64,000 nucleotides of DNA from Candidatus Limnocylindrales bacterium. Its GTDB lineage: Bacteria; Moduliflexota; Moduliflexia; Moduliflexales; JAUQPW01. A program made the position numbers and the translations under genes. This document shows, piece after piece, positions 6,762 through 38,711 of this stretch. Under the pieces are notes generated by a model. That model was not told the DNA's origin and did not search any database. It worked only from the letters and a program-made list of their open reading frames with translations. The stretch spans positions 192,568 through 256,567 of the forward strand of contig DATMBG010000022.1 of the NCBI GenBank assembly GCA_035559535.1. Direction: 5' to 3'. Within the stretch, counting starts at the first letter, position 1. Every line of letters starts with the position of its first letter.

Positions 6762-6777
6762 TTTCCTTTCTCCTTTC

Positions 6778-7632
6778 TTATTTTATAGCCCCTAAAGTTA
6801 AACCGCGAGTTAGATATTTTTGAACCAGCAGGGAAAGGACAAAAATAGGGGCCGATGCAATGACCGAAAGTGCACCGGCTGCCCCCCAGAAGGTAGATTC
6901 GGAACCAAAAAATCCACTCATTTTTACAGGTAGAGTCACCACCTTAGAGCGGGTTAAAATAACGGCGAATAGAAACTCATTCCAACTGAAGATGAAAGTA
7001 AAGACCGTGGTGGCAATCAATCCTGCTGCCGAAAGAGGTAAGGCAATGGACCAAAATACCCGAAAAACCGAGGCGCCATCTACCAGAGCACTCTCTTCCA
7101 CTTCGACAGGTACATCCCGGAAGTATCCTCGCATCATCCAGATAACGTAGGGTGTGTTAAAAGCTGCATAGAGAAGGATCAGGCCGTGGTAGGTATCTAC
7201 CCATTTGAGGGTACGAAAAAGCAGAAAAACAGGAAAGGCAATGGCAATAGGAGGTAGCATTCGTTGGGACAGAACCCAAAAAGCAAAATTCCTTCCCCCT
7301 GTTTTAAAGCGGGCCATACTATAAGCAGCCGGACAACCTATGATCATGGCCAAGATAGTGGCCCCTCCTGCGATCACGAGGCTATTGACCAACGCATCGA
7401 TGGATCGGTTTCTCACCAGGGATTGAAAATGATCGAAGTCTAGGGATCTGGGAAACCAGACCGGAGGATTATGGAAATACTCGCTGGGCCGTTTTACCGA
7501 CATGCTAAAGATCCAGTAAATGGGAAATAAAAAGAACAAAAAGGCCAGGATCATGACCACATATCGTAATCCATACCTTCGGAGAAAGTAGGTGACTCCT
7601 TTATGTTTTGAAGCAACAGCTAAACTCTGCAT
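6778..7632 (-). CDS. carbohydrate ABC transporter permease (MalG-like)
   Basis: Six TM segments, EAA-like loop (ESALVDGASVFRVFWSIALP). Confidence 0.85.
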   Translation of the reverse strand: MQSLAVASKHKGVTYFLRRYGLRYVVMILAFLFFLFPIYWIFSMSVKRPSEYFHNPPVWFPRSLDFDHFQSLVRNRSIDALVNSLVIAGGATILAMIIGCPAAYSMARFKTGGRNFAFWVLSQRMLPPIAIAFPVFLLFRTLKWVDTYHGLILLYAAFNTPYVIWMMRGYFRDVPVEVEESALVDGASVFRVFWSIALPLSAAGLIATTVFTFIFSWNEFLFAVILTRSKVVTLPVKMSGFFGSESTFWGAAGALSVIASAPIFVLSLLVQKYLTRGLTLGAIK

Positions 7633-7695
7633 TGAACCGAAAAAACCTGACCTTCGACTCCTCCCCTGGGGAAGGAAGCCGAAGGGTTGGGTTTT

Positions 7696-8640
7696 CTACT
7701 CCTCACTAAATCGACGAAGGAAAAGGGTCGTTGCGGTAGAGACCAAAATAAGGACAATAAAGGCCATTGCCGCCGTGTAGCCCAGGCGGAAATTTTTAAA
7801 ACCTAAGGTATAGATATAAAAAGTAATGGTTTCCGTAAAGGTCCCCGGTCCGCCCACGGTCAGGGCAAAAATTAGATCGAAGATTTTGAATACATCCAGA
7901 CTTCGAATAATCAAGGCAATGATCATAATCGGTCGAATCAAAGGCAACGTCATATGCCAGAAAGTCTGCCAGGCTGTGGCCCCATCCAGGGCAGCCGCTT
8001 CATAAAGTTCCGGATTAATGGCGCTTAGACCGGCCAGTAAAGCCAGAAACATAAAGGGGGTCCATTGCCAGACTTCCGCTACAATCAGGGAAAAGTACAC
8101 CGTTTTAGGATTGATCAGCCACACCAGGTTGACAGGATGTCCGAGTATCCAACCCAATACCTCATTGATAGGCCCATATTGAGTGTCCCATAGCATACGC
8201 CATCCATATCCTACCACCACCGGACACATAATGGTTGGCAAAATCAGCAGGGGGATGAGGATCTGCTTACCTGGAAGCTTACCCACCAGGACTTGAGCCA
8301 GAAGGAGTCCCAGGATAAGCTCGGCACTGACCGCTACCACCATGATGAACAGAGTGTGTCCCAAGGCTTCCCACATTCGGGTATCCTGAAGGACCTGGAT
8401 GTAATTGCCAAGGCCTATAAAAGGGCGTTCTCTTCGTTGGAAAGTCCAGTCTAAAAAGCTAATCCAGAAAAGGTACAGAATGGGGAAGATGGTAAATGAG
8501 AGGATCAAAATAACCGAGGGAGCCACCAAGAGATATCGAATACCACGTCCCCCCCAGATAAATTTACCCCGTTGCGGGGCTACAGCCTCAACAGATTTTT
8601 TAGATCCGGTGGGTACCACGGGAGTATCGATGATTTGCAT
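7696..8640 (-). CDS. carbohydrate ABC transporter permease (MalF-like)
   Basis: Polytopic. EAAALDGATAWQTFWHMTLPLIRP EAA motif. Confidence 0.85.
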   Translation of the reverse strand: MQIIDTPVVPTGSKKSVEAVAPQRGKFIWGGRGIRYLLVAPSVILILSFTIFPILYLFWISFLDWTFQRRERPFIGLGNYIQVLQDTRMWEALGHTLFIMVVAVSAELILGLLLAQVLVGKLPGKQILIPLLILPTIMCPVVVGYGWRMLWDTQYGPINEVLGWILGHPVNLVWLINPKTVYFSLIVAEVWQWTPFMFLALLAGLSAINPELYEAAALDGATAWQTFWHMTLPLIRPIMIIALIIRSLDVFKIFDLIFALTVGGPGTFTETITFYIYTLGFKNFRLGYTAAMAFIVLILVSTATTLFLRRFSEE

Positions 8641-8738
8641 TTAATTTTTGGTTTATGGTCCATCGTCCGTTGTCCTTTGTGGAGTTTAGTCTATAATTAA
8701 CCTCTGACAACGGACAACGGACTGAGGACTATAGACTC

Positions 8739-10184
8739 CTACCTGGGATAGGCATTAGGTCTGCTGGCCCATTCTTTGTAAGCTTCCCGTTGTTTATCTA
8801 CCCCAAGCCTTTGCGTGATGGCATCCCATTCTGCCGCAGCTTTATCCAAAGCTTCTTTAGGAGGTGTTCCCGCGTAGGCAGCTACGGCTGCTCGATCCAG
8901 AGCTTCTTCATATTCCCGTGCACCGGGTATGGCCAGATCCAGAAGACCTTTTTCGGCTCCGAGTTTGAGGACATCCAGATACTCCCCGGCATTATCCCAT
9001 TGAGATCGATACTCTTTAGATTCATAATGGCTCAAACGGTAGGGATCCCGTAAGGCGTAAGGAAGCATGACCCGTTGGAGGCTGATCTCCTTGCTGGTAA
9101 GCCATTGAATGAAAAGGTAAGCGGCTTCTTTGTTTGGACTATCCGACGATACACCCAGATTGAATCCTGCAGCCAGCTCGGGATGGCCTCCGGGAGGCAA
9201 GGCATAACCAACCTTACCGATAACCTTCGTTTCCGGCATCCATTTAAGTTGCTCGGCCCGATCTCTATAACCTTGCGACCAACGACCGGGGGGTGGCCAA
9301 CTGATAATCATGGCAACCTTACCGTCCATCCAGGCGCTGAAGACTTCGATAAAGCTCCACTTTTCAATTCCAGGGGGCATATTTTTGTTGTTATTTACCA
9401 TGTCCGTAAGGGCCTTAATGGCGGCTTCGCTGTTGATGGTAGCCTTCATGGTTTCAGGATCGAAGAATTTGGCTCCGTAGACTCGAAGCTCTTCTTCGAC
9501 CCAGGGGTAGGTCTGGCCTGCGGCTCGTTGAATAGCACATCCGTGGCCTCCACTGGCGGCTAATCTCTCTTTGAAGAAGGCACAGATTTGATCCCATTCC
9601 TGCCAGGTCTGAGGGGGGCGTAAGTCCTGACCATACTTGGCCTTATAGGCCTCCTGGTTTGCCTTATCCCCAAATAAATCCTTTCGATAATACATGACAA
9701 AGGTGTCCCCATCGTCAAAGATTCCATAATGCTTTCCTTTCCAGACCAGCCACTGTTGATAGGTAGGATGGATATCATCCAGAGCTCCCGGGGGCATATA
9801 CTTATTCATGAAATCATCCAGAGGCTCCAGGGCTCCCGCCTCAACCAGATCCGCCTGCCAGGCCGGGACGTAGTTGATAACATCGAAATCCCCCGACCCG
9901 GCCAGATGGGCAGTTACTATCTTGGAGAAAAGTTCAGGGAAAGGAGTTTCAATGGTCTGGACTTTAATACCCGTTAGCTTCTCCCACAGGGGACCCGAGA
10001 AGACTATAGGGTCCTGCGCCTGCAATCCGGCTTCCCATATTACCCGCAATGTGATTCCTTTGTATTTCTTAGCAGCTTCCACTGCAATATCTGCGGCAGA
10101 TTTCTCTTGACCATAACTTTGCAATCCAAAACTTAGTAGAGCCAAGATAGAAATTACAAATACCGAATGGATTTTCCAGTTCAT
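8739..10184 (-). CDS. ABC transporter substrate-binding protein (extracellular solute-binding family 1, sugar)
   Basis: Sec signal peptide MNWKIHSVFVISILALLSFGLQSYGQ, 481 aa. Directly upstream of the two permeases. Confidence 0.85.
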   Translation of the reverse strand: MNWKIHSVFVISILALLSFGLQSYGQEKSAADIAVEAAKKYKGITLRVIWEAGLQAQDPIVFSGPLWEKLTGIKVQTIETPFPELFSKIVTAHLAGSGDFDVINYVPAWQADLVEAGALEPLDDFMNKYMPPGALDDIHPTYQQWLVWKGKHYGIFDDGDTFVMYYRKDLFGDKANQEAYKAKYGQDLRPPQTWQEWDQICAFFKERLAASGGHGCAIQRAAGQTYPWVEEELRVYGAKFFDPETMKATINSEAAIKALTDMVNNNKNMPPGIEKWSFIEVFSAWMDGKVAMIISWPPPGRWSQGYRDRAEQLKWMPETKVIGKVGYALPPGGHPELAAGFNLGVSSDSPNKEAAYLFIQWLTSKEISLQRVMLPYALRDPYRLSHYESKEYRSQWDNAGEYLDVLKLGAEKGLLDLAIPGAREYEEALDRAAVAAYAGTPPKEALDKAAAEWDAITQRLGVDKQREAYKEWASRPNAYPR

Positions 10185-10334
10185 AGGCTTTGATCTCCCC
10201 TTATTTCACCAAGGTAAAAGCCGAAAATAAAACATTCCTCCCTTTACCTTATATTAATTATTTTATCATTTACCTTATTTTCGTGGTGCTTTTGGGTGAC
10301 GAAGTGTTTTTGTAACAAAGCCGTTAAATGATTT

Positions 10335-12326
10335 TTAACGCCTGTAATCTATTCTCACCAAACCATACGGAAGCATTTCAAATTTTAAATGGCCTTCTTC
10401 TGTTCCCACCTCCTTTCCGTTCTCTTGATAAAAGGTTTCTGGCTCCTGCATGGCCTGTTCGACATTCTGTTCATCTAGAGGCCGAATCCAGACTCTGGAA
10501 GGCAACCCGGCAACGGTCACCTGTTCCGGGACCGGACTAAGATTCATCACGATGAATCGGGTATGTCCATTTTTTCTCAATCCCAGTCCATTGGCCCGTA
10601 GAATGTCACTGGAACGGGTAGGGATGACAGTACCGCCGATAAACTGACCCACATCGGCCAGGACATGGTAAAGGGGAAATACCGTACCCGGTCGTGAAGG
10701 GAACTTTTCCGGTAAGGGAGAACCCTGCTCCGTCTCCATAACCCCTCGCCAGCCGGTCGTTTCATAGTAGGTGACACTGTATATTCCTTCTTCCAGGAGA
10801 TATTTGAGACTTCCCGTGGTCCAACATGCGCCAAACAAAGATGTTTGCCGAACGTCCACCTGGGGGGGAAGTTCTCCTGGAATGGCTTTTGGCTCGGGAG
10901 GCGAACCGTTGGGTTGAAGTCGGGGACGGAGCGTAACCGGACTGATGGCCAACAGTTTATCTCCGATAATTCGACGGGCATTTTGAACGGTTACCCCTTG
11001 GGTCTCCAGGTTTTCTACCAGTGTTGCATCATCAAAGGCGTGAACCTGGGGATTAATGGAATAGCTTACCAAATCGATAAGGGCCACCGGGGGATGACCG
11101 CGGTTTATCTCCGTAAAATAGGCGTTGGTACCTGCACCCACTTTGGCGGCAGGTGCGTATTCTTTCAAGACAGGACGGGCCAGTTGAATCCACTTTTCGG
11201 TGGTTGAACTCTCCCCAATATGGAAGATCAACCAGGTACAAACCCGCGGTTTAATCTGAAATAGTGCGTCCCTCAAGTCCATAAGTTCCTCCCTGGCTAC
11301 ATCCGACAAAATCAATGCCACTTCCAAGTCCACTCCCAGCTTTTCGGCTTCCTCGCCGGCTCGCTGCAATCGATTCCTATAATCTGATTCAAATAAAGGT
11401 AAATCCACCCGAAGATGGGAAAGGTTGAGTAGCTTCAGGCGGGCGATTTCCTTGGGGGTTAAAGATTGACCATGACTGGCCATACCCAGTCCGATACGCG
11501 GTAAGGGGAATGGATTGGCCGTAACCAGCCCCTCTATTCTCAAAGGTTTTGGCTGAGGAGGGGTGAAGAGGGCCGGGGTATGAAAACGTGCCGGATCTTT
11601 CTGTTCTCGAATTTTATCCTCTTCCCCCTCCTGACCATAGTGAAGGAAAAGAGTAACCGACTGGCTAATTTTCTCCCCGGCTTTGACTTCGACAGGACGT
11701 GGTAGCGCAAGGGGGGTACAATAGGTTTTGAAAGAAGCATCTGTCCAGTTACGATGGTCTTCGGTTTCAAATACCTCTCCTTCAAAGCGAACTTCTGCCC
11801 GAATGCCGGGTCGGACTTCATGGATCATACCCTGTAGATCCATAAAAGGTTGATGAGGTGAAATTGCTTTTGGAAACATGCTGCGTTCTCGGGTGCCATC
11901 TTTTTTCAATAATTCAACCGGTAACCCGGCAACCGACATGGGATGAAGTACACAGAAACCGAGACGGGCCCGCCAGAAATTACGATGGGCGATTCCCTCC
12001 ATCGAGAAGCGAATTGTTCCCTGCCGGTCCCCTGTAATATGTCCCTGCCAGGAAAAGTCGATTTCACCTTGTTTATGATCGGCGTCAAAGGTAATTTCAA
12101 AATGATCTTCCTGGCTATCTACCTTCAGGTTGGAAATAACCGGCACCACGGTACTCCAATCCGGCGGACGCAGCGCCATATAGATGTGCCGAAGAACTTC
12201 CTGTTCACCGAGTCGAATATACCTTAGTGTACCTGCTTCAAATTGAAGCGTGAGTGGACCTGCACGAAGTTCAAGCCGTTGCGCGGGAGGTTCGTTGACC
12301 CCACGTAGAAGAATCCAATTTGACAT
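10335..12326 (-). CDS. hypothetical protein (663 aa) heading the sugar-uptake cluster; possible glycan-processing enzyme
   Basis: Long uninterrupted ORF with no motif I can name. First gene of the co-directional cluster. Confidence 0.5.
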   Translation of the reverse strand: MSNWILLRGVNEPPAQRLELRAGPLTLQFEAGTLRYIRLGEQEVLRHIYMALRPPDWSTVVPVISNLKVDSQEDHFEITFDADHKQGEIDFSWQGHITGDRQGTIRFSMEGIAHRNFWRARLGFCVLHPMSVAGLPVELLKKDGTRERSMFPKAISPHQPFMDLQGMIHEVRPGIRAEVRFEGEVFETEDHRNWTDASFKTYCTPLALPRPVEVKAGEKISQSVTLFLHYGQEGEEDKIREQKDPARFHTPALFTPPQPKPLRIEGLVTANPFPLPRIGLGMASHGQSLTPKEIARLKLLNLSHLRVDLPLFESDYRNRLQRAGEEAEKLGVDLEVALILSDVAREELMDLRDALFQIKPRVCTWLIFHIGESSTTEKWIQLARPVLKEYAPAAKVGAGTNAYFTEINRGHPPVALIDLVSYSINPQVHAFDDATLVENLETQGVTVQNARRIIGDKLLAISPVTLRPRLQPNGSPPEPKAIPGELPPQVDVRQTSLFGACWTTGSLKYLLEEGIYSVTYYETTGWRGVMETEQGSPLPEKFPSRPGTVFPLYHVLADVGQFIGGTVIPTRSSDILRANGLGLRKNGHTRFIVMNLSPVPEQVTVAGLPSRVWIRPLDEQNVEQAMQEPETFYQENGKEVGTEEGHLKFEMLPYGLVRIDYRR

Positions 12327-15163: not shown

Positions 15164-15859
15164 ATGTGTGGACGTTATACCCAAACCCGAGAGACGGAAG
15201 CTTTACAGGCCCGTTTTAAATTTGAGCCTACAGACATTGTACTCCATCCCAGATATAATCTGGCCCCGGGACAGGACGCTCCGGTAATTGTCCAGGAGGA
15301 GTCCAGGGTCCTCAAGCTCATGCATTGGGGTCTGGTCCCATCCTGGGCAAAAGAAACCTCCACCGGCTATAAGATGATCAACGCCCGGGCAGAAACCCTT
15401 ACCCAAAAACCCAGTTTTAAGAAGTCTTTTCAGCGCAGGCGTTGCCTGGTTCCGGCCGATGGTTTCTATGAATGGCGTAAAAATGGCGGTCGGGCCAAAA
15501 CTCCTCTACGTTTTGTACTCAAAAGCGGAGACCCTTTCGCTTTTGCAGGTCTCTGGGATATATGGCAGGGATCTGACGAAGACGCAACAGAAGGTAACAA
15601 CCGCTTGTTGCTGCTTTCCTTTACCATCATTACAACAGAAGCCAACGATCTGATTCGTCCGATTCATGATCGAATGCCGGTTATACTCCAACCAAAAGAT
15701 GAAGATACCTGGTTAGATCCGGATTTGAAGGATGTTAACAAACTGGCTTCTCTGTTAGTACCTTATCCATCGGATAAAATGATGGGGTACGAAGTCTCCT
15801 CTCTGGTAAATTCACCTCAAAACGATACCCCTGAGTGCCTGTTAGAAAGGAGGGTATAG
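15164..15859 (+). CDS. SOS response-associated peptidase (SRAP / YedK / HMCES family)
   Basis: N-terminal MCGRY with catalytic Cys2. 231 aa typical. Confidence 0.85.
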   Translation: MCGRYTQTRETEALQARFKFEPTDIVLHPRYNLAPGQDAPVIVQEESRVLKLMHWGLVPSWAKETSTGYKMINARAETLTQKPSFKKSFQRRRCLVPADGFYEWRKNGGRAKTPLRFVLKSGDPFAFAGLWDIWQGSDEDATEGNNRLLLLSFTIITTEANDLIRPIHDRMPVILQPKDEDTWLDPDLKDVNKLASLLVPYPSDKMMGYEVSSLVNSPQNDTPECLLERRV

Positions 15860-15860
15860 A

Positions 15861-16151
15861 ATGAATAATCTCAAACCGGATAGAAGTGAAATCGAGAAAA
15901 ACTGGCGGGCCCGGGGATTTAGCTGTGATCTTTGGGTTGATCCCCCCGGACGGGTCTGGAAAGATTATATTCATTCCGTGGATGAGCTTTTGATGGTCCT
16001 GGAAGGAGAGATTGAACTGGAAATGCAGGGAAAGACCTTTCGTCCCAAGGTAGGGGAGGAAGTACTCATCCCGGCCAGAACCCTGCACACCGTTCGTAAC
16101 GTAGGAAGTACGACTTCCCGATGGCTTTACGGTTATAAGGAGCATCCCTGA
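15861..16151 (+). CDS. cupin domain protein
   Basis: Small beta-barrel-type sequence (GEEVLIPARTLHTVRNVG). The ATG is 1 nt after the SRAP stop, consistent with translational coupling. Confidence 0.55.
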   Translation: MNNLKPDRSEIEKNWRARGFSCDLWVDPPGRVWKDYIHSVDELLMVLEGEIELEMQGKTFRPKVGEEVLIPARTLHTVRNVGSTTSRWLYGYKEHP

Positions 16152-16533
16152 AACCTCTCTGGATCCTGAAAGGAGTCACTCTTGTTCCTGCTTATGGCAG
16201 CAATAGCCGGGACGGGTACCCGGTTAGCCGAAAGCAGAAAAAAGCAGAAGATTTTTAACAGGAAATTTTATCTCCCTGCCGAAGTCCAGATCAGGATGGA
16301 TTCCTGAGAAGGTTAAGACAGGCCGATTATTAAATAACCCTGGGACTCCTGGAATTGTTTACATGGATCTAGAGAGGTGGGTTTCAAACCCTGCTTCTCA
16401 ACATAGGTGGGAAGAGGATAAGCCGGAGTTCCCCTTTGATTTTAACTCAACTCCTTTAACTTCAGCATAATTCATCAAGAAAAAGGATTTTATACTTTCC
16501 CCCTAATATTTCTCTGAGGTTCCATTTTTTTTC

Positions 16534-16562
16534 TTGACAGGGGATTTTGGAGGGAATATAGA
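16534..16562 (+). promoter_or_regulatory. candidate sigma70-type promoter (TTGACA-N17-TATAGA) preceding a ~290-nt structured leader of the PQQ dehydrogenase gene
   Basis: TTGACA at 16534-16539, TATAGA at 16557-16562, preceded by a T-run. Identified by eye only. Confidence 0.25.
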
Positions 16563-16852
16563 ACAGGGTTATCCTCATCCCTCAACCCTTCCTCTAACCG
16601 GAGGGGGATCATACCACCGGAGCGACAAAAGCAGAGATCTACCGTCCACCTGTGGGATAAGGAGTCGAGTCAATTCAATCTTTGGCCATGAGTTAGATCA
16701 CAACCGTCTATCCCTACCTCGTAGGGATAGATCCTTAAACCCATAAGAATCTGTGGTGAGTAGCCCCCGGCTTGTGGGTTTAGACAAAGAGGGTATCTGT
16801 GTACGTTCTATTGAATTTGCACGGATAGAACCCTGAATCAAAGGAGGAAATC

Positions 16853-18550
16853 ATGGACCGTATTTTAAGGAGACTCGCAGTAAAGTATTTTGTTTTAGTG
16901 CTTTTCCTCACAGGTATTACCGGTTGGGTGCACGCACAACCCGTAACAGATATCATGCTGGCGGCTAATCCAGGTGAATCCTGGCTCCATGCCAACGGCA
17001 ACTGGGCAGGACATCGCTACAGTACCTTAACCCAACTAAACCCGGAGAGCATCAAGGGTCTCAAGCTTGCCTGGATTTACTCATTAGGGGGAAAAACCGA
17101 TGCCCAGAATACACCGCTCTATCATGATGGACTGGTATATGTTGCCCAAGACAATACCGTGTTTGCCCTGGATGCCCATTCTGGGAAACGGGTATGGAAG
17201 TATACCCACAAGCTTCCTGAAGATTGGGGTGGATACAACGTTCCCTTCATCACAGGTAAACATCGGGGCTTAGCTATTTACGGGGAATATATTTACTTCC
17301 TGTCTAACGATGCCAAACTCCACGCCATCCATTACAAAACGGGTCAGGCAAAGTTCGTAAAGGATTATCCGGACTTTCCTTACCCCAAGGACTTCGAAAA
17401 ATCTAAGGATGCAAACGGCTATGCAACGACCGTTGGTCCCCTGGCAATCCCTGGCCAGATTATTGTACCTATGAACGGGACAGACTTCGGTGGACTCCCC
17501 GGATATGTGCTGGGTGTAAATCCAGAGAACGGCAACATGTTATGGAAAGCCAACATGATCCCAGGACCGGGGGAAGTAGGATACGAGACCTGGCCTCAGG
17601 GGAGCCATGAGTGGGGTGGAGCAGGTCCCTGGATTACCGGTACCTGGGATCCTGAGCTGAAAATGTACTTTACAGGGACGGCCAATGCTTATCCCTGGAA
17701 TCCTAAAAACCGGGGTAAGGGATTAATGGAAAACCTGGGGGCTGCAGGTATTGTGGCAGTTAATACAGATACCGGCAAGACGGTCTGGCGCTATAGTGCT
17801 GTCCCTGGGGATCCCTGGGACTTTGATACGCCACAGACTCCGTTGATTATAGAGATCGAAGGACGAAAGACCCTTGTCCAGCCAAACAAGACCGGTTTTA
17901 TCCACTATCTGGATCCGAAGACCGGAAAATTCCTGAGAGCCGTACCTTTCGCCGATAAGATTACCTGGATTAAAGGATATGATCCGGAAGGAAAACCCAT
18001 CAGCCAGATCGACCTGCCTGTAGAAGGGGGGCCGACGATTGAGGTATGGCCCAGCTTGCTGGGTGGCGTGAACATGTATCCTTCAGCGTATAATCCTAAG
18101 ACGGGTTATATCTATCTGGCAGCGGTCAATGCCGGAATGAAGTATGGATTCGAGGATATTAAGGTCATCAGCAACGTCCGACATTTCGGTGCGTATCAGG
18201 AATTCATCTGGGGATACGAGGTGGATCAGGCCAGGGACGTCAAGTCGGGTAGAGAAGTCTGGAGGGATCAAAAGAGTAAACATGGATTTGCCGGTGGAAT
18301 GCTGACCACAGCCGGAAATCTGACCTTCTACACAACCCAGGGGGGTGTCTTTCAAGGTGTAAATGCCACTACCGGTGAAATCCTATACGCCTTCAACCTG
18401 GGAACAACAGCTTACTCTGGACCGATTACCTTCATGGTTGATGGTAAACAATGCGTCGTACAGGTAGCCGGAGGATCTCCCGAAAAATTCGGCTACAAGG
18501 AGCACAATCTGGAACACGGCAGCCTGGTTGCAGCATTCTGCCTGGAATAA
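16853..18550 (+). CDS. PQQ-dependent dehydrogenase, methanol/ethanol family (XoxF/ExaF-like)
   Basis: Sec signal peptide. Eight-bladed propeller with Trp-docking motifs. Catalytic region GDPWDFDTPQ carries a D-x-D motif. There is no adjacent Cys-Cys pair anywhere in the 565 aa. Followed by a c-type cytochrome. Confidence 0.85.
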   Translation: MDRILRRLAVKYFVLVLFLTGITGWVHAQPVTDIMLAANPGESWLHANGNWAGHRYSTLTQLNPESIKGLKLAWIYSLGGKTDAQNTPLYHDGLVYVAQDNTVFALDAHSGKRVWKYTHKLPEDWGGYNVPFITGKHRGLAIYGEYIYFLSNDAKLHAIHYKTGQAKFVKDYPDFPYPKDFEKSKDANGYATTVGPLAIPGQIIVPMNGTDFGGLPGYVLGVNPENGNMLWKANMIPGPGEVGYETWPQGSHEWGGAGPWITGTWDPELKMYFTGTANAYPWNPKNRGKGLMENLGAAGIVAVNTDTGKTVWRYSAVPGDPWDFDTPQTPLIIEIEGRKTLVQPNKTGFIHYLDPKTGKFLRAVPFADKITWIKGYDPEGKPISQIDLPVEGGPTIEVWPSLLGGVNMYPSAYNPKTGYIYLAAVNAGMKYGFEDIKVISNVRHFGAYQEFIWGYEVDQARDVKSGREVWRDQKSKHGFAGGMLTTAGNLTFYTTQGGVFQGVNATTGEILYAFNLGTTAYSGPITFMVDGKQCVVQVAGGSPEKFGYKEHNLEHGSLVAAFCLE

Positions 18551-18654
18551 ACCGGAAGATGCCCAGGAGTTTTACTTAAAGTAGAGATGAAAAAGCGCGC
18601 ACAGAGGACTGTGCGCGCTTTTGTGGGATAGGTCAAAAATAAAGGGAGAAAGTA

Positions 18655-19083
18655 ATGAGGAGAATGGGTCAAGGAATTCTGTTAGGGATTTTTATGGTAG
18701 GCTTTATCACCATAAATGGATGGGGCCTGGGGAACGCCCTGGGAGCCGATACAGGAACAGAAATCCCGGCGACAAATCCTTTTTCGGGGAATCAAGCCGC
18801 CATCGAGGAAGGTCGCTCCTGGTACCGCTCTATATGCAGTAATTGTCACGGTGGAAGGGCCGATGGAGCAGGAGAGCGTGGGCATGGTGCCGATCTACGG
18901 GTGTTCAACAAGGGATTCCGGAAATTTGTTGAAACCGTAAAGAATGGAAGAGATACCGGTCGTGCCATGAAAATGCCCAGTTGGGGAAAAGTTTTATCTG
19001 ATGATACTATCTATAAAATCGGAGCCTATCTGGAAACACTGGCCCAGGAAGGAGCTAACTGGAAAGAAGGAGTCAAACAGTAA
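18655..19083 (+). CDS. c-type cytochrome (candidate electron acceptor of the PQQ dehydrogenase, XoxG-like)
   Basis: Signal peptide. Single CSNCH haem-binding motif plus a downstream Met (KMPSW). 142 aa. Confidence 0.8.
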   Translation: MRRMGQGILLGIFMVGFITINGWGLGNALGADTGTEIPATNPFSGNQAAIEEGRSWYRSICSNCHGGRADGAGERGHGADLRVFNKGFRKFVETVKNGRDTGRAMKMPSWGKVLSDDTIYKIGAYLETLAQEGANWKEGVKQ

Positions 19084-19357
19084 CCGCCTGTTAACCTCCA
19101 GCAGGGCGGTACCGATCGTCCTACCGGTTCCAGGTAAACAGAGAAAAATCAAAGTTCCGTTCTCGAACCTCCAGGGCTAATAGGAAAATTAACCGACATG
19201 AAAATGGGGGGGGTAAGGCGTTTGCGCTCCCAGGGAATGGGACCAAACTTTTCTACTTTATCCTGCGCATATAGGAACAACCTGGAGCAGTTGAGAAAAC
19301 CCTAAGGAGGAATTAGAGTGAGCGGCGAGGGCCCCCTCGCCGCCTTGAGAAGTGGGA

Positions 19358-21862
19358 TTATTTTGCCGCAGATACCGGAAGATCTCCCAGCGAACCTACA
19401 GAAACTACAGGAAATACGCCCAAAAATTGAGAAGAAGAAGTAAGAATCCACCACTGCCCCGTAGAAGGTCGAAAGATTCCCAGATCGGTCCGTCCATCTC
19501 CATCATAATCTGCCTGAACCGGAAGATCTCCGGGTTGTCCCCATGCCCTTGTCACGATTCTCCTACTTCTAAGAATACCTATCCAGGTTCCTGTGCTGGG
19601 TCTCCAGACGGCTACATTGGCTAATCCATCTCCATCATAATCCCCAGGTACCGGAAAATCTCCCACAGTTCCTAAAACCCTAATGGTAAGCAGATTATTG
19701 CTAGAATTGGTAATAAACCACTGACCGGTGGAAGGTCTAAAAACAGCAATATCCGTCACACCATCTCCATCATAATCAGCCGGAACAGGGATGTCGCCGG
19801 GCATACCCCAAATTGTGGCTCCAAGGCCACCACTTGAGAAAAGGATCCACCATACACTGCCGAGGGGCCTCCAAACAGCACGATCCGTCAAGCCATCCCC
19901 ATCGTAATCTCCAGGAACCGGAAGATCTCCCGCCTGACCCCAGACCTGAATATCCTCACCGGCTGGAAGAAGAACATGCCACTCGCCGGTGGAAGGCCTA
20001 AAGAAGGCAAAATCGGCGGTTCCATCTCCATCGTAATCACCGGGAGTTGGAATATCTCCCGAAGATCCGAAGGAAACCTTTGAGGTCCTGCCGGATACCG
20101 ACCACTCTCCGGTTGTGGGATTCCAGACGGCAATATCATCATTCAACCCCCCATTGAAATTCGCCTTATCTGCCACAGGAACAGCCGGAATCAAAGGTAA
20201 GGTTTGTTGAATAACCCACACACTCCCGAGAGTTCCGGCATAGAGAATAGAAGGAGTTGTTGGATCTACTGCTAAAGCCTGGATACCCAGATTCGTCAAT
20301 CCTGTATTCATCACGCTCCAGTTTCCTCCTCCATCGAGGCTCTTGAACACACCCTCCAAGGTTCCCGCATAGAGAGTCACAGGGGTCACCGGATCGATAG
20401 CCAGGACTCGAACATCCAGATTCGTCAGTCCAGTACTGATACTGCTCCAACTGCCACCCCCATTGATGCTCTTGAAAATACCGTTACCGACGGTACCTGC
20501 ATACAGAGTTGCAGGGGTCGCCGGATCGATAGCCAAAGCCTGAATATTCAGATTCGTCAATCCCGTATTCATCACACTCCAGCTCCCACCCCCATTGATG
20601 CTCTTGAAAATACCGTTACCGGCAGTGCCCGCATACAGAATTGCAGGGGTCGTCGGATCGATAGCCAGAGCCTGAATATTCAGATTCGTCAGCCCGGTAT
20701 TTATTGCCCTCCAGCTTCCCCCCCCATCGGTACTCTTGAAGATCCCCCCACCTGAAGTCCCCGCATAGACCGTGGAAGGAGTCCCAGGATCGATAACAAG
20801 ATCCCGAATATTGAAGGCCGTCAGTATATCAAAGGCCGTCAGTCCGGTATTTATTGCCTTCCAGCTTCCCCCCCCATCGGTACTCTTGAAGATGCCTCCC
20901 GAAGTTCCTGCATAGACCGTGGAGGGATTTGTAGGATCGATAGCCAGATCCCGAATATTGAAGGCCGTCAGTTTGTTATTTACAGGGTTCCAGTTTACCC
21001 CCCCATCGGTACTCTTGAATACCCCACCATCGATAGTCCCTGCATACACCGTGGAAGGGGTTATGGGATCGATGACCAGAGTAAGAACACTCAGATTGGT
21101 CAATCCGGTATTCGCCACACTCCAGCTCCCCCCGCCATTGGTACTCTTGAAGATACCTCCTCCCAAAGTCCCTGCATACAGGATAGAAGAAGTTTTAGGA
21201 TCCACGGCCAGGATATAAACATCCAGGTTGGTCAGTCCAGTATTTACCGTATTCCAGTTTCCTCCTCCATCGGTACTCTTGAATACCCCACCTGAAGTCC
21301 CTGCATAGAGAATGGAGGAAGTTACAGGATCAACGGCCAGGGCTCGAACCTCCAGATTCGTCAACCCCGTATTTGCCACACTCCAGTTTCCTCCTTCATC
21401 GGTACTCTTGAATACCCCACCTGAAGTCCCTGCATAGAGAACGGAGGGAGTCGAGGGATCAACGGCCAGGGCTCGAACTTCCAGATTCGTCAACCCCGTA
21501 TTTGCCACACTCCAGTTTCCTCCTCCATCGGTACTCTTGAATACCCCACCTCCAAAAGTCCCTGCATAGAGAACGGAGGGGGTCGAGGGATCAACGGCCA
21601 GGGCTTTTATGTTTCCACCTTTCGGTCCATTGGTCGTCCATAGGTTAAACCCGGCAAAAGCCCTGTCTACCCCTAGAGAAAATAGAGTCAATAGAATTCC
21701 CACAAAGAGTATCTGGAGGCGGAGATATAAGGATAAAGTTTTTATCCCTGATTTACAAAAACTATAACGAAAGTCGGAAAGTAAATATTTTTTATCTTGC
21801 TTCTCACTGTTATTGCGTAACAGAGAAAGCAGGTTTTTTATAGATTCCCTTGGAGTTTCCAT
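19358..21862 (-). CDS. large membrane-anchored repeat protein: N-terminal TM, about 12 BNR/Asp-box-like repeats (YAGTxGGGVFKSTDGGGNW), C-terminal FG-GAP/VCBS-like repeats (GDYDGDGxTDxAVWRPSTGxW)
   Basis: Repeat consensus read directly from the translation. 834 aa. Confidence 0.8.
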   Translation of the reverse strand: METPRESIKNLLSLLRNNSEKQDKKYLLSDFRYSFCKSGIKTLSLYLRLQILFVGILLTLFSLGVDRAFAGFNLWTTNGPKGGNIKALAVDPSTPSVLYAGTFGGGVFKSTDGGGNWSVANTGLTNLEVRALAVDPSTPSVLYAGTSGGVFKSTDEGGNWSVANTGLTNLEVRALAVDPVTSSILYAGTSGGVFKSTDGGGNWNTVNTGLTNLDVYILAVDPKTSSILYAGTLGGGIFKSTNGGGSWSVANTGLTNLSVLTLVIDPITPSTVYAGTIDGGVFKSTDGGVNWNPVNNKLTAFNIRDLAIDPTNPSTVYAGTSGGIFKSTDGGGSWKAINTGLTAFDILTAFNIRDLVIDPGTPSTVYAGTSGGGIFKSTDGGGSWRAINTGLTNLNIQALAIDPTTPAILYAGTAGNGIFKSINGGGSWSVMNTGLTNLNIQALAIDPATPATLYAGTVGNGIFKSINGGGSWSSISTGLTNLDVRVLAIDPVTPVTLYAGTLEGVFKSLDGGGNWSVMNTGLTNLGIQALAVDPTTPSILYAGTLGSVWVIQQTLPLIPAVPVADKANFNGGLNDDIAVWNPTTGEWSVSGRTSKVSFGSSGDIPTPGDYDGDGTADFAFFRPSTGEWHVLLPAGEDIQVWGQAGDLPVPGDYDGDGLTDRAVWRPLGSVWWILFSSGGLGATIWGMPGDIPVPADYDGDGVTDIAVFRPSTGQWFITNSSNNLLTIRVLGTVGDFPVPGDYDGDGLANVAVWRPSTGTWIGILRSRRIVTRAWGQPGDLPVQADYDGDGRTDLGIFRPSTGQWWILTSSSQFLGVFPVVSVGSLGDLPVSAAK

Positions 21863-24315: not shown

Positions 24316-27069
24316 ATGATCCCATGGACCCAATCCGCAAAGGAAGAATTAGATCGTTATTCCGACCAAATTCGGCGTACGGTGGAATCATCGGGAGCCG
24401 ATCCTTCGATATTTATCACAGACATTTATCGGTACGTTGATGAAGCTATTGCTGCTTCTCACCTTCAGGTGGTAACGGAGGAGGATATCCGGCGAATCTT
24501 ATCCCAGATAGGCTTGCCTGGCTCCGATTCCATGGGATGGAAGAGAGATTTTGAACCTGAAATTCCTGTTCAAACAAATCCTTTCCATTCTGGGACAGAT
24601 CCTGGGACAGAAGTACCGAAGAGTCCAGGGATAAAGTCTTTACAAAGGTCGGATTTTAACCGGATTTACAAGAGGCCATCCGGTCTGTTTATTCTTTTGT
24701 TTGGTGTTGTACTTCCTCTGATAACTCTTGGGGTTGAATTAAGCACCCATCTATGTGCCAACGAATTTTTCGATCCGATTCCGACGACCTGGCATATTCT
24801 TTTGGTCGGGTTTGTGCCCCTTGCGAATCTTTTAGTTTGGCTGGCCGTCTGGAAGGGTAAAACCTCCTATCGACGGAAATTGGGATTAATCAATGGAATT
24901 GCACTGGGTGTGGCATTTTTTTACACACTCCCCTTTATTCCTCTCCTTCCCCTGAGTGTTTTTGCAATTATTTATTTTGGTATAGGATTGTTACCCATGG
25001 CGCCTCTTTTCTCTTTCATTTCAGCCGTCCTTTGTCGCCGTTACCTTCGACAGATGACCCTCGAGGCAACGCCCAGGAAGGTCCCAGGTCTTGGATGGGG
25101 GATTCTTTTAGCTCTCGTAGCTTTTGTGGCCGCCGATTTGCCAATTGTTCTCACCCGAATCGGTATACAGATGGCTGCTTCCCCTTCTTCCGAGATCAGC
25201 CTTCGAGGGATTCGATGGCTCCGGGCCATAGGGGATAAAGACCTTCTACTACAGGCCTGTTATCGGCGCCCTGCAAGGATATCGGATTTCTTCAGTTTTA
25301 TGGTTTCCATGGGAAATCTTCCTACCCCCGAAGAAGTCCGCAAGATTTACTACCGTGTTATGGGGAAGCCCTTTAACGCAGTTCCTCCACCAAAACTTGT
25401 TACCTTTGATCGTTGGAGTTTCTGGGACGAGCTTGATTTTGACCGGGATCAGGGTGGGGCTGTGGTGGGAGAACGGATAAAAGGACTTTCCCTGGTCGGC
25501 TCTCGACTGGATGGATCTTTGGATCCTGATGCCGTTTTGGTTTATACCGAATGGATCCTTATTCTCAAGAACAATTCCAATCGGCAACATGAAGCAAGAG
25601 CTCAAATCGCTCTCCCTCCAGGGGGAGTAGTTTCACGCGTAACGCTCTGGATCAACGGAGAGGAGCAAGAAGCCGCCTTTGGATCGCGAGGGAAGGTGCG
25701 GCAGACCTATGAACAGATCGTTCGACAACGGCGAGATCCTGTTCTCGTTACCACCAGCGGCCCTGATCGTGTCTTAGTCCAGTGTTTTCCTGTACCTCCA
25801 GGCGGAGAGATGAAAGTTCGAATTGGGATTACCGCACCACTTTTGTTGGAAACCAGGGACCGGGGGCTTTTTCGTTTACCTTACTTTTTGGAACGTAACT
25901 TTAGTATCTATGAAGAAGGTTCCCATTCTGTCTGGTTTGAATCGAGAAAGCCCATGGAAACCCTCAGCAAAACTCTTAAATTAGAACATTCCGACAACAA
26001 CCTCTATACCATCCGAGGAACCATGTCGGATCCCGATCTGACAACATCCCAGGCTATTATCCATGTGGGTCGGTCTGGAGAGGTCGTGCAGGCCTGGACC
26101 CCAGATCCTGTAAGCAAAAAGGAACAGATCATTCGTCAGATCATCCAAGAGAGGGAACCTCAGTCTCCGGCCCGGGTTATCCTTGTCGTTGATGGCTCTC
26201 AAGGTATGCAAGGGTTTCTTCCAGAAGTTATCGATGCCCTCTCCGGGCTCCCGGAAGGCATCGAATTGGGTTTGATCTTTGCCTCAGATGACGTTCGTCT
26301 CCTGGCAGGGTCGATACAAAAAGTTACAGCCGAATGGTATAGAACTCTTGCCGATCACCTGAAGAAAGAGAATTTTGAAGGAGGCCAGGATAACATCCCG
26401 GCCCTGATCAAGGGTTGGGACCTTGCAACGGAGCATCCAGATGGTATCATCCTGTGGATTCATGGACCCCAACCCATTCTTTTGCAAACAACAGAAGAAA
26501 TTCGGCAGAGATGGGAAAGACGACCTGACTCCCCTCATCTTTATGAGATCCAGGCCGGAGGTGGACCCAACCGTATCGTTGAGCAACTCGATGGGATCCC
26601 AGCCATAAAATCCATTCCACACCTGGGAAGTTTATCCGATGATTTGAAAAGACTGTTCTCCCCATGGCGTGGTGAGTCAAAAGAATGGGTGTTATTCCGT
26701 GAAAGAGTTACCCGAGAAAGCCTGGACGATTCGATCCCGGGTAAAGAGACCTCTGCCCATCTGGCTCGACTTTGGGCGAAGGATGAAATTCTGAAACGTG
26801 TTGTTTTCAAAGGGAGACCTGAATCTTCGAGTCCGAACCTGATAGAGGAAGCTCTTCAGCTTGCAATCAGCTATCAACTGGTAACTCCCCTTAGTGGAGC
26901 GGTTGTTCTGGAAACCCAGCAGCAATACCAACAAATGAATCTTGAGCCGGTCAAACCGGGTACAGTTCCAACCATCCCTGAACCGGAGACCTGGATGCTC
27001 CTGCTGGTGGTTGCTACGGTCCTGATAGGGGTCTTTTACCGATGGAAGATCTTGCCCGTTAGAGAATAG
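24316..27069 (+). CDS. PEP-CTERM-anchored protein with N-terminal polytopic membrane domain, VIT (vault protein inter-alpha-trypsin) domain and VWA domain; XrtN-system-like exosortase target
   Basis: C-terminus IPEPETWMLLLVVATVLIGVFYRWK is PEP followed by a TM helix and basic tail. A VIT-like block lies around AQIALPPGGVVSRVTLWINGEE...VQCFPVPPGGEMKVRIG. A VWA-like block lies around RVILVVDGSQGM. About six TM helices sit in residues ~120-290. Confidence 0.8.
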   Translation: MIPWTQSAKEELDRYSDQIRRTVESSGADPSIFITDIYRYVDEAIAASHLQVVTEEDIRRILSQIGLPGSDSMGWKRDFEPEIPVQTNPFHSGTDPGTEVPKSPGIKSLQRSDFNRIYKRPSGLFILLFGVVLPLITLGVELSTHLCANEFFDPIPTTWHILLVGFVPLANLLVWLAVWKGKTSYRRKLGLINGIALGVAFFYTLPFIPLLPLSVFAIIYFGIGLLPMAPLFSFISAVLCRRYLRQMTLEATPRKVPGLGWGILLALVAFVAADLPIVLTRIGIQMAASPSSEISLRGIRWLRAIGDKDLLLQACYRRPARISDFFSFMVSMGNLPTPEEVRKIYYRVMGKPFNAVPPPKLVTFDRWSFWDELDFDRDQGGAVVGERIKGLSLVGSRLDGSLDPDAVLVYTEWILILKNNSNRQHEARAQIALPPGGVVSRVTLWINGEEQEAAFGSRGKVRQTYEQIVRQRRDPVLVTTSGPDRVLVQCFPVPPGGEMKVRIGITAPLLLETRDRGLFRLPYFLERNFSIYEEGSHSVWFESRKPMETLSKTLKLEHSDNNLYTIRGTMSDPDLTTSQAIIHVGRSGEVVQAWTPDPVSKKEQIIRQIIQEREPQSPARVILVVDGSQGMQGFLPEVIDALSGLPEGIELGLIFASDDVRLLAGSIQKVTAEWYRTLADHLKKENFEGGQDNIPALIKGWDLATEHPDGIILWIHGPQPILLQTTEEIRQRWERRPDSPHLYEIQAGGGPNRIVEQLDGIPAIKSIPHLGSLSDDLKRLFSPWRGESKEWVLFRERVTRESLDDSIPGKETSAHLARLWAKDEILKRVVFKGRPESSSPNLIEEALQLAISYQLVTPLSGAVVLETQQQYQQMNLEPVKPGTVPTIPEPETWMLLLVVATVLIGVFYRWKILPVRE

Positions 27070-27180
27070 TAGAAGGGTGGGGGTGTGGGAGGGTGGGGGT
27101 AGATGTAAATTCTCCCATACTTTTACGCTCCTTTCTACCCTTCCATACTCCCATACTCCCACACCCTCATACTTCCCTCT
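27070..27180. repeat. heptamer-repeat palindromic element, copy A2
   Basis: gggtgggggtgtgggagggtggggg / center agatgtaaatt / ctcccatac...ccatactcccatactcccacaccctcatac. Sits in the 112-nt gap between the PEP-CTERM gene and the exosortase gene. Confidence 0.7.
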
Positions 27181-27181
27181 G

Positions 27182-27991
27182 ATGAACAACCAGAGTTTCC
27201 TTTTTATTCTCCAGTTTCTTGCCTTTTGGCCGGTTTGGAAATGGTATGTTCTCAGGCTGATAGATTCTCCCCAGGAACTATTTGGCTTAATCGCTTTAGG
27301 TACCGCGGGAGGATTTATTTTATGGAGAAGGCCTGATTTAAGTTCCGCCAAATCCCGTCTGATTTTGCCGGCCGTTTTTGTGCTTCTCTATACGGTGACT
27401 TACCCTTTTCTTCCATTCCTGATAAAGGCTGCTATTGCGCTCGTTGCCATAGGTTGTACCCTAAGTTCCTATCGATGGGGGATATCTTTTCATCCTGGAA
27501 TCTGCGGGCTTCTCCTCCTATCCCTCCCCGTTATCCCCTCTCTACAATTCTACCTGGGATATCCACTCCGTGTGTTAACAGGTATCCTAGCGGTTCCTCT
27601 CCTTCAATTGGGAGGTTTTACCGTAGTTCGAGAAGGAACTTCCTTAAATTGGGATGGTCAACTCATCTTAATTGATGCACCTTGTAGTGGGGTTCGGATG
27701 TTATGGTCGGCCCTTTATCTCACTTTTACCTTGACCTGTTTCTACGGATTTAATACAGGAAAAACCTGTCTGGCCGTTCTTCTCTCATTCCTGGGGATTA
27801 TTGCAGGAAATGCGCTCCGTTCGGCTGCCTTATTCTATCCTGAGGCCCATACCCTTGCTCTCCCCTCCTGGACCCACGAAGGGATTGGGATGGTCGTATT
27901 TTTCTTCACAGCCATTTTTATTGTGGGAGGTATTCGGTGGATTCGAAAAAAATTTCCATTGGTCAAGCGGGTGGTCAAGCGGGACGCTTAA
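27182..27991 (+). CDS. exosortase (small EpsH/Xrt family, XrtN-like)
   Basis: Eight TM helices. Conserved LIDAPCSGVRMLW with the catalytic Cys, and a conserved Arg in AGNALRSAAL. Start trimmed to ATG 27182 because the upstream ORF extension is repeat sequence. Confidence 0.85.
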   Translation: MNNQSFLFILQFLAFWPVWKWYVLRLIDSPQELFGLIALGTAGGFILWRRPDLSSAKSRLILPAVFVLLYTVTYPFLPFLIKAAIALVAIGCTLSSYRWGISFHPGICGLLLLSLPVIPSLQFYLGYPLRVLTGILAVPLLQLGGFTVVREGTSLNWDGQLILIDAPCSGVRMLWSALYLTFTLTCFYGFNTGKTCLAVLLSFLGIIAGNALRSAALFYPEAHTLALPSWTHEGIGMVVFFFTAIFIVGGIRWIRKKFPLVKRVVKRDA

Positions 27992-38329: not shown

Positions 38330-38704
38330 TTAGAGGCCATTCTTATCTGGAATTTCTTTTATTTCTGTCTTTACCGAAAAAGAAGTAAAGCCAGGTCTGG
38401 TATAAACCCAGATTGCTTCTTTCATCACCGTTTGGTAAAACCTTCTTCCTTCCTGACCGAGTTTTTTCCATTCCTCCCTGGTATAAACCAAAAGATCCAC
38501 CGGCACGGGAAGTTCCCCGGTATCCCATGTAAGCGTGCGTTTCTCAAAGGGTTGGTCTGAACTTTCCAGGATAACAATCAAATCAAGATCACTTCCTACC
38601 CCCCAATCCCCACGGGCATAGGAACCAAAATAACCTATCTGTAATATTTCTTTTCGACTTTGTACAATCTTTTCGGCCCAGGAACGTATGGCCCGGTCGA
38701 CCAT
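38330..38704 (-). CDS. nucleotidyltransferase (MNT-type, Pol-beta superfamily) antitoxin-like
   Basis: GSYARGDWGVGSDLDLIVIL motif. Start placed at ATG 38704 (MVDRAIRSW), which gives the typical ~124 aa and an 11-nt overlap with the HEPN stop. The longer ORF would overlap HEPN extensively. Confidence 0.7.
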   Translation of the reverse strand: MVDRAIRSWAEKIVQSRKEILQIGYFGSYARGDWGVGSDLDLIVILESSDQPFEKRTLTWDTGELPVPVDLLVYTREEWKKLGQEGRRFYQTVMKEAIWVYTRPGFTSFSVKTEIKEIPDKNGL

Positions 38705-38711
38705 TTCAGCG

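Follow-up and report, generated by a model that had tools for sequence, protein, structure and literature searches.

Within a 64,000-nt stretch of contig DATMBG010000022.1 from a Candidatus Limnocylindrales bacterium (hereafter the window, to which all positions refer unless a locus is named), two adjacent genes encode a dehydrogenase of the pyrroloquinoline quinone (PQQ) type and a monohaem c-type cytochrome. We propose that they form a periplasmic two-gene redox module, that the enzyme represents a distinct clade with a non-canonical and possibly lanthanide-binding site, and that a leader RNA and an intercistronic hairpin shape expression of the pair. Taken as a whole, we consider this reading probable, if well short of assured. 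A preliminary description of the same DNA had proposed a rare-earth-dependent enzyme with a cytochrome partner and a metal-responsive leader; all of its sequence statements hold, and its interpretation is supported in part. The 2 genes are as follows.

16853 to 18550, + strand: open reading frame (ORF) of the PQQ-type dehydrogenase, 565 aa, with a signal peptide (approximately residues 1 to 28) and an eight-bladed propeller.
18655 to 19083, + strand: gene for the monohaem class I c-type cytochrome, 142 aa, with one CSNCH, an MPSWG Met ligand and an N-terminal signal peptide.

The 565-aa protein matches the PQQ propeller family of Pfam (PF01011) with an E value of 3.5e-51 and carries WDFDTP at residues 322 to 327, in agreement with the preliminary description. 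The nearest solved structure by sequence is the lanthanide enzyme PedH (6zcv; E value 6.5e-72, approximately 31% to 35% identity). An AlphaFold2 model based on a 38-sequence alignment (pLDDT 84; predicted template modelling score, pTM, 0.87) also retrieves PedH 6zcv first in Foldseek (template modelling score, TM, 0.82), followed by type II and III alcohol dehydrogenases (ADHs), ExaA and XoxF; the top 30 are all PQQ ADH or methanol dehydrogenase (MDH) structures, with TM values of 0.71 to 0.83. NCBI labels close relatives merely as "PQQ-binding-like beta-propeller repeat protein". The protein contains only 2 Cys residues, C534 and C563, which are far apart and neither of which is conserved. 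The lack of a vicinal Cys pair, already pointed out for this protein, extends to the whole family: a CC is found in 0 of 117 members, and in 64 of the 117 the mature part is entirely free of Cys.

For the assignment of active-site residues, the dehydrogenase was aligned using MAFFT with its 117 homologues and with reference enzymes, namely XoxF from SolV (4mae), XoxF1 from AM1 (6oc5), MxaF (1g72 and 4tqo), PedH, ADH-IIB (1kv9) and a PGAP-named XoxF5. The sequences of 4mae, 6oc5, 1g72, 4tqo, PedH and 1kv9 were rebuilt from printed alignments. Site residues were related to the numbering of MDH-W3A1, for which 15 of 15 active-site positions gave the expected residue in the reference. In this alignment, D323 coincides with the catalytic Asp, and D325 occupies the lanthanide-ligand column, opposite Asp301 of SolV XoxF and the equivalent Asp of PedH, XoxF1 and XoxF5; MxaF has Ala and ADH-IIB has Thr at this position. 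A pairwise HMMER alignment likewise places WDFD of the dehydrogenase on WDFD of PedH. The D-x-D noticed earlier is thus located in the true metal-ligand column. D325 is invariant in the family (117/117), as are the catalytic D323 and the metal-ligand Asn N278, and the complete set of metal-site residues read from the alignment is D211, N278, D323 and D325, a "3D-1N" arrangement. Because of D325, we infer that a lanthanide is the most likely metal, with calcium as the main alternative; lanthanide dependence is plausible but unproven.

The PQQ pocket is a mixture of retained and replaced residues. The equivalents of W3A1 R109, T153, W237, N255, D297 and N387 are present, and the residues holding the cofactor are retained as R138, T193, W260, N407 and K346, suggesting that the dehydrogenase binds PQQ. 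K346, at the position of R324, is a Lys as in ADH-IIB, and an Asp stands at the position of A299; these states do not vary among the 117 homologues. The disulfide-forming C103 and C104 are replaced by an invariant Phe132 and by Ile, Phe or Val at position 133 (Ile133 in the dehydrogenase itself), preceded by a 4-residue insertion; Phe132 may stack over PQQ. Overall, 51 of the 78 columns that are invariant across 8 references are retained, and the differences concentrate around the pocket.

Sequence searches set the family well apart. Searching 5.8 billion proteins yielded 628 matches, the best 120 of which are approximately 560 to 570 aa long and 62% to 98% identical to the dehydrogenase, the closest (98%) being from metagenome-assembled genome (MAG) GCA_030550175.1. 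In an exhaustive phmmer search of 1.84 billion cluster representatives, the family scores approximately 600 bits at 52% to 53% identity, and the next matches fall to 268 bits and at most 37%. Identity is at least approximately 50% within the clade, compared to at most 37% to anything outside. A neighbour-joining (NJ) tree built from 136 sequences gives the family the longest of its internal branches and separates it from the PedH, type II ADH, XoxF/MxaF and sorbose dehydrogenase groups; since the tree has no bootstrap values, this placement is approximate. Phylogenetic placement, which the preliminary description had named as a check, yields a separate deep clade and not membership of the XoxF or ExaF/PedH clades.

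Among 119 distant full-length representatives, a missing CC is combined with D-N-D-D in 33 cases (including 10 of the family itself) and a CC is combined with E-N-D-D in 38, compared to 13 sequences with Glu and no CC and 7 with both CC and Asp. From these counts, disulfide loss and the Glu-to-Asp change tend to co-occur, and both are common among uncharacterised relatives. The clade is a biochemically uncharacterised branch of the methanol/ethanol dehydrogenase superfamily with an altered active site; it is a variation on an established enzyme type and not a new type of system. Its MAG hosts comprise Rokubacteria, Acidobacteria, Entotheonella, Burkholderiales, Gammaproteobacteria, marine Alphaproteobacteria, SAR324, Latescibacterota and a "Pelagibacterales" bin. 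Copy number varies: Burkholderiales MAGs contain tandem duplicate dehydrogenases (L020, 154 to 3798; L119, 2977 to 6638), and the Entotheonella chromosomes OZ244252.1, OX639990.1 and OZ250173.1 (family loci L033, L036 to L041, L063, L067 and L068) have 3 to 5 dispersed copies each.

The cytochrome gene starts 104 nt downstream of the dehydrogenase gene. Its product matches PF13442 (E value 7.6e-12, 45.8 bits, cut-off 27) and has the features of a class I monohaem cytochrome; the best NCBIfam match is cytochrome c550 PedF (TIGR04494), which accepts electrons from PedE/PedH, at 54.3 bits and hence below the cut-off of 122. The presence of a CxxCH monohaem cytochrome with a signal peptide, as originally described, is therefore confirmed, and it recurs across the family. 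Downstream sequence of 650 nt or more is available for 139 family loci; a homologous cytochrome follows on the same strand in 95 of them, and in 97 if every CxxCH ORF is counted, the median gap being 91 nt. Clustering of the neighbours of 88 dereplicated loci identified the cytochrome as the sole strongly recurrent partner. Other recurrent neighbours (TPR, TetR, ExbB-like, AMP-binding and small unknown proteins, as assigned by Pfam on the clusters) occur at 12 loci or fewer each, and genes for PQQ synthesis (pqq), xoxJ, lanM and TonB receptors are not recurrent among the neighbours of these loci. The sugar transporter, epimerase and short-chain dehydrogenase/reductase (SDR) genes upstream are not conserved neighbours either.

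Some neighbouring genes are shared more locally. A small cupin gene (15861 to 16151, + strand) immediately precedes the dehydrogenase gene in the window, at L001 and at L176 (530 to 934), the last from a relative with 80% identity that belongs to a GC-rich lineage; L005, L174 and L175 do not have it, and genes for FGE-sulfatase and sCache_2 proteins recur near these 3 loci. At L007 (4157 to 6882; also at L008), from a relative with 78% identity, the family member stands beside a divergently oriented PQQ dehydrogenase of a different kind (590 aa), which is accompanied by its own 151-aa cytochrome c and a 132-aa gene.

Between the 2 genes lies an element that the preliminary description did not mention.

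18591 to 18622, listed on both strands by the terminator scan: terminator-like hairpin AAAAGCGCGCACAG-AGGA-CUGUGCGCGCUUUUG.

Of 85 distinct spacers between dehydrogenase and cytochrome genes, taken from different phyla, 83 contain a hairpin of -20 kcal/mol or lower within 44 nt, compared to 16 of 85 after shuffling. The family hairpins begin approximately 26 nt past the dehydrogenase stop codon, their stem sequences vary by locus and most have U-rich tails. Stems at many loci, again across phyla, have GCGCGCAC...GUGCGCGC in common (spacers of L001 to L176). The hairpin is separated from the cytochrome start codon by only approximately 33 nt, and therefore there is no room for a separate cytochrome promoter. 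A terminator-like structure between the genes means that simple co-expression is not assured. We suggest that the hairpin acts as a partial terminator or 3'-end stabiliser, which would hold cytochrome mRNA below dehydrogenase mRNA.

Upstream of the dehydrogenase, the spacer from 16152 to 16852 (701 nt) contains a promoter and a leader, with the following elements.

16527 to 16562, + strand: sigma-70-type promoter with a T-run, a -35 box TTGACA (16534 to 16539), a 17-nt spacer and a -10 box TATAGA (16557 to 16562).
16569 to 16852, + strand: non-coding 5' leader of approximately 283 nt, conserved in the closest lineages only.
16665 to 16688, + strand: most conserved leader block, tcgAGTCAatTCAATcTTTggCcA, near-invariant in 4 lineages.
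16709 to 16729, + strand: perfect 10-bp hairpin tatccctac-ctc-gtagggata, in the window and L001.
16735 to 16783, + strand: long leader hairpin AAACCCAUAAG...CUUGUGGGUUU, the best-supported structural element, with palindrome arms at 16737 to 16742 and 16776 to 16781.
16842 to 16847, + strand: Shine-Dalgarno sequence AGGAGG, 5 nt before the ATG and invariant in all 4 leaders.

Both the non-coding stretch of approximately 700 nt and the TTGACA-N17-TATAGA promoter (16534 to 16562) reported previously are confirmed. Four lineages (the window, L001, L005/L006 and L174) keep the T-run, the TTGACA and a box of the form TATA(G/C/A)A, and the spacer sequence upstream of these is unalignable. The promoter scan omits this site, as it accepts only a second hexamer with T as its sixth base. 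Transcription would start at this promoter. Compared to L001, where the protein is 98% identical, the spacer has 85 nt of conserved sequence past the cupin gene, approximately 230 nt of dissimilar sequence, and conservation from approximately 16470 to the ATG. The dissimilar middle part (16290 to 16500 in the window versus 9480 to 9640 in L001) looks replaced or inserted just upstream of the promoter.

An nhmmer profile of the leader found it only at L001 to L004, L011, L082, L005/L006 and L174, and the carriers are orthologues with 98% (L001), 86% (L174) and 84% (L005/L006) protein identity; of 38 sources scanned with a covariance model built on the leader core (R1), the window itself was the only one to match. 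Leader identity is 92.6% for the window and L001, compared to 80.7% at 4-fold degenerate sites of the coding sequence. The corresponding excess is small for L005 (58% versus 47%) and L174 (56% versus 51.5%). The leader RNA fold has a z-score of -3.55, and RNAalifold on the 4 leaders gives 53 pairs, 13 of them with compensatory changes, a number reached by 0 of 500 shuffles and compared to 3 to 7 in slid controls. Since these values derive from the same 4 sequences, representing approximately 3 independent lineages, support for the structure is modest. The hairpin at 16735 to 16783 corresponds to consensus helices 8 and 9 (18 pairs, 5 of them changed on both sides), and includes a double change from A-U to G-C at 2 stacked positions in L005 and L174. 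The perfect hairpin at 16709 to 16729 has not been kept in L005 or L174, and the consensus retains no more than a helix of 3 bp there. Thus, of the leader of approximately 290 nt with stable palindromes that had been described, the leader itself is conserved and predicted to be structured, and its second palindrome is retained, whereas the first palindrome is not conserved and the lineage range is narrow. The tcgAGTCAatTCAATcTTTggCcA block contains a tandem TCAAT and could be a protein-binding site instead of an RNA element. No ORF in the spacer or leader is conserved across lineages, and a small conserved leader ORF was rejected as reading frames break between lineages. An Rfam 15 search of 15800 to 19500 gave nothing in 16152 to 16852, and its sole match is a chance-level STnc320 (18584 to 18636, - strand, E value 0.05, 26.8 bits versus 50). 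The leader probably affects mRNA stability or translation.

Together, the data suggest the following scheme. The secreted dehydrogenase would oxidise some alcohol, aldehyde or sugar-like substrate and pass the electrons to the PedF-like monohaem cytochrome c, and from there they would enter the respiratory chain. D211, N278, D323 and D325 would hold the metal, likely a lanthanide, and Phe132 with Ile/Phe133 would replace the vicinal disulfide that caps PQQ. Transcripts from the conserved sigma-70 promoter would run through the structured, lineage-specific 283-nt leader, with the intercistronic hairpin probably letting only some of them reach the cytochrome gene. A bolder generalisation, which we put forward tentatively, is that uncultured soil, sponge and marine bacteria harbour a widespread class of quinoproteins that use rare-earth (or other high-coordination) metals and dispense with 2 features presumed essential, having an all-Asp/Asn site in place of the Glu and a Phe cap in place of the disulfide ring while still passing electrons to a dedicated cytochrome c, the pair being tuned by a conserved attenuator hairpin and, in the present lineage, an undescribed structured leader RNA.

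A number of observations weigh against the proposed module. All 78 of 78 genome loci of the family come from MAGs. Approximately 30% of the family loci have no adjacent cytochrome, including L005, which with 84% protein identity is among the nearest relatives beyond the window's own lineage; its downstream gene encodes an unrelated secreted protein of 127 aa, and some other loci have tandem dehydrogenase copies instead. Coupling to the cytochrome without a disulfide ring is unproven, because the ring in ExaA has been reported as necessary for electrons to pass efficiently to cytochrome c550 (cited in PMC8546591), making a ring-less yet cytochrome-coupled enzyme a point of biochemical interest. 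The loop replacing the disulfide (residues 121 to 140, including F132 and I133), for which the preliminary description had proposed a structural check, has a pLDDT of only 62 to 74. The hairpin between the genes may also terminate transcription fully. The bidentate metal Glu (E171 in W3A1, E172 in SolV) is Asp211 in the dehydrogenase and likewise in 117 of 117 homologues, and because of this replacement the metal site is not the canonical 2D-1E-1N coordination sphere of XoxF and PedH. This last point underlies the main rival explanation, a working PQQ dehydrogenase on calcium or another divalent ion, in which the shortened Asp211 would alter the geometry such that the extra Asp is no longer lanthanide-selective. 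A recent preprint (10.64898/2026.07.14.738520, July 2026) considers the second Asp by itself an unreliable lanthanide diagnostic, with many D-x-D proteins that have no coordinating Glu being predicted calcium binders, and the window and the recurrent neighbours contain no lanM, lut-type TonB receptor or xoxJ. However, the calcium binders in that preprint are the 2D-1N proteins, and the 3D-1N class is among the predicted lanthanide binders, a prediction made by modelling only. D325 is invariant and the closest solved relative, PedH, is lanthanide-dependent, so that we hold calcium to be a serious but rather doubtful alternative. With regard to the earlier claim that the D-x-D favours a rare-earth enzyme, the ligand column and the closest structure agree with it, but the Glu is gone and the extra Asp alone is not proof.

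The family scores raise the question of whether the protein uses PQQ at all. The dehydrogenase reaches 337.3 bits against NCBIfam TIGR03075 (methanol/ethanol family; cut-off 480) and nearly the same, 317 bits, against TIGR04528 (acido-empty-quinoprotein group A; cut-off 650), and is a member of neither because both scores are below the cut-off. Moreover, the ORFs of 150 aa or more in the 64 kb include none for PQQ biosynthesis. This agrees with the preliminary description, which had also listed mxaI and xoxJ as missing: none of the ORFs of this size is PqqB-, PqqC-, PqqE-, XoxJ- or MxaI-like, with the very small genes (pqqA, pqqD and mxaI) not specifically searched. In addition to the disulfide and the Glu, 2 PQQ-contacting Trp residues, equivalent to W467 and W531 of W3A1, have been lost. 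The protein might thus be an "empty" propeller, non-redox or with another cofactor, like acidobacterial homologues from genomes without PQQ synthesis. We regard this as unlikely: the score is far under the TIGR04528 cut-off, the residues for catalysis (Asp), metal binding (Asn and Asp), stacking (Trp) and contact with PQQ (Arg, Thr, Asn and Lys) are invariant across phyla, a dedicated c-type cytochrome is linked in approximately 70% of the loci, and PQQ can be imported by PqqU-type transporters according to PMC12124388. An XoxF-type MDH supporting methylotrophy would account for the D-x-D motif and for a downstream cytochrome c as in xoxF-xoxG, and JGI labels relatives as "alcohol dehydrogenase (cytochrome c)" or methanol/ethanol family, but identity to solved XoxF is only 24% to 26%, scores are weaker than against PedH and type II ADHs, the family falls outside the XoxF/MxaF clade in the NJ tree, and the Cys-Cys typical of all true MDHs (review PMC11845868) is absent. 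With no xoxJ among the window ORFs considered above and no C1-assimilation genes found nearby, this explanation is the most improbable of those considered here. Only slightly less improbable is that the leader acts as a metal-sensing (lanthanide-sensing) riboswitch over the operon. In favour of this, the leader is a conserved non-coding sequence with a predicted structure and some compensatory changes, and in the minimum-energy fold of the window its 5' end (UCCUC) pairs with the Shine-Dalgarno sequence. However, this sequestering helix has no covariation and is missing from the L005 fold, the leader is confined to 4 closely related lineages (approximately 3 independent sequences) and does not precede any other family member, it has no Rfam match, and known lanthanide switches act via two-component systems (review PMC11845868). 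Metal-responsive control by the leader, as suggested in the preliminary description, therefore finds no support, since nothing ties the leader to metal sensing.

Comparison with known systems places the clade closest to PedH/ExaF (6zcv). Both have an eight-bladed propeller, W-D-F-D with the second Asp in the lanthanide column, the Asn ligand, the catalytic Asp, the stacking Trp and a Gln at the Glu55 position, and both are soluble and periplasmic with a small acceptor of the cytochrome c550 type (in NCBIfam, the neighbouring gene matches PedF best). Unlike PedH/ExaF, the clade has Phe-Ile for Cys-Cys with the 4-residue insertion before it, Asp for the metal Glu, and Lys for Arg at the position of the PQQ C9 carboxylate; at approximately 31% to 35% identity it forms its own deep clade, is below the TIGR03075 cut-off, and its cytochrome scores 54 versus 122 bits for PedF. 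XoxF enzymes (4mae, 6oc5, 6dam and 7o6z) have in common with it the D-x-D, the Asn ligand, the catalytic Asp and a downstream monohaem cytochrome (xoxG-like), but the clade is 24% to 26% identical to them and has no Cys-Cys, no Glu ligand, no xoxJ and no methylotrophy context. The disulfide-less state with an extra Asp has been noticed before, and solved enzymes without CC exist, with a different site. These are L-sorbose dehydrogenase 4mh1, the Pseudogluconobacter ADH 4cvb, the deoxynivalenol (DON) dehydrogenases 7wmd and 22vi, and 9m2c, all eight-bladed PQQ enzymes that, like the clade, lack a vicinal Cys-Cys before the conserved Arg and have K-T-G at the Arg324 position. They differ from the clade in their Gln/Ala(Gly)/Asp-x-Glu site, the Glu loop of which carries a C-x5-C pair; they are approximately 24% identical to the dehydrogenase and cluster apart from the family. 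CC-less D-Y-D quinoproteins, uncharacterised, were noted in heterotrophic marine Thaumarchaeota (review PMC11845868) and resemble the clade in having the extra Asp without the disulfide; they belong to a different lineage and are known from predictions only. The "3D-1N" PQQ-8-beta proteins of fungi and bacteria (10.64898/2026.07.14.738520) likewise have Asp for the coordinating Glu, with lanthanide binding being predicted only. A linked cytochrome c and an intercistronic hairpin have not been described for either of these 2 groups.

These findings bear on how metal use is predicted in environmental PQQ enzymes. Lanthanide use is now predicted from a single Asp, and the clade, with hundreds of sequences, combines this Asp with another coordination sphere and lacks the disulfide ring. 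One tested member would tell whether 3D-1N binds lanthanides and whether an aromatic cap substitutes for the disulfide, and either outcome would sharpen metal-preference prediction for thousands of such enzymes. The clade may further point to a new class of substrates in bacteria that are abundant yet uncultured, such as Rokubacteria, Entotheonella and marine Alphaproteobacteria. The near-universal hairpin between enzyme and cytochrome would provide a simple example of stoichiometry control in a two-gene redox module.

The remainder of the window contains several other gene groups. Citrate synthase gave no usable taxonomic signal, its matches at 80% to 82% being labelled variously as Thermodesulfobacteriota, Binatia, Methylomirabilales, Acidobacteria and "bacterium HR11"; the label "Ca. 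Limnocylindrales", the single one on a near-identical protein, is regarded as unreliable. A second 565-aa ORF (48624 to 50321, - strand) was considered as a paralogue of the dehydrogenase and rejected, being an IlvD/Edd dehydratase. At 38330 to 39100 (- strand), and also at L012 (1082 to 1853), a HEPN/nucleotidyltransferase pair resembling a toxin-antitoxin system adjoins a 451-aa radical SAM gene, the context of which is not PqqE-like. The region 5736 to 12326 (- strand) encodes a sugar-type ABC transporter (SBP_bac_1 and 2 permeases), an epimerase and a 663-aa protein without a Pfam match; gene order and sizes, without a DNA alignment, suggest that L001 does not have the transporter and the 663-aa gene but retains the epimerase. 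Convergent to the cytochrome gene, 19358 to 21862 (- strand) encodes an 834-aa secreted repeat protein with Sortilin/BNR-type followed by FG-GAP repeats, the L001 homologue of which has 875 aa and no precomputed Pfam match. The region 24316 to 27991 (+ strand), which differs from its equivalent in L001, encodes a 917-aa VIT-domain protein followed by an exosortase (EpsH family), suggesting PEP-CTERM-type sorting.

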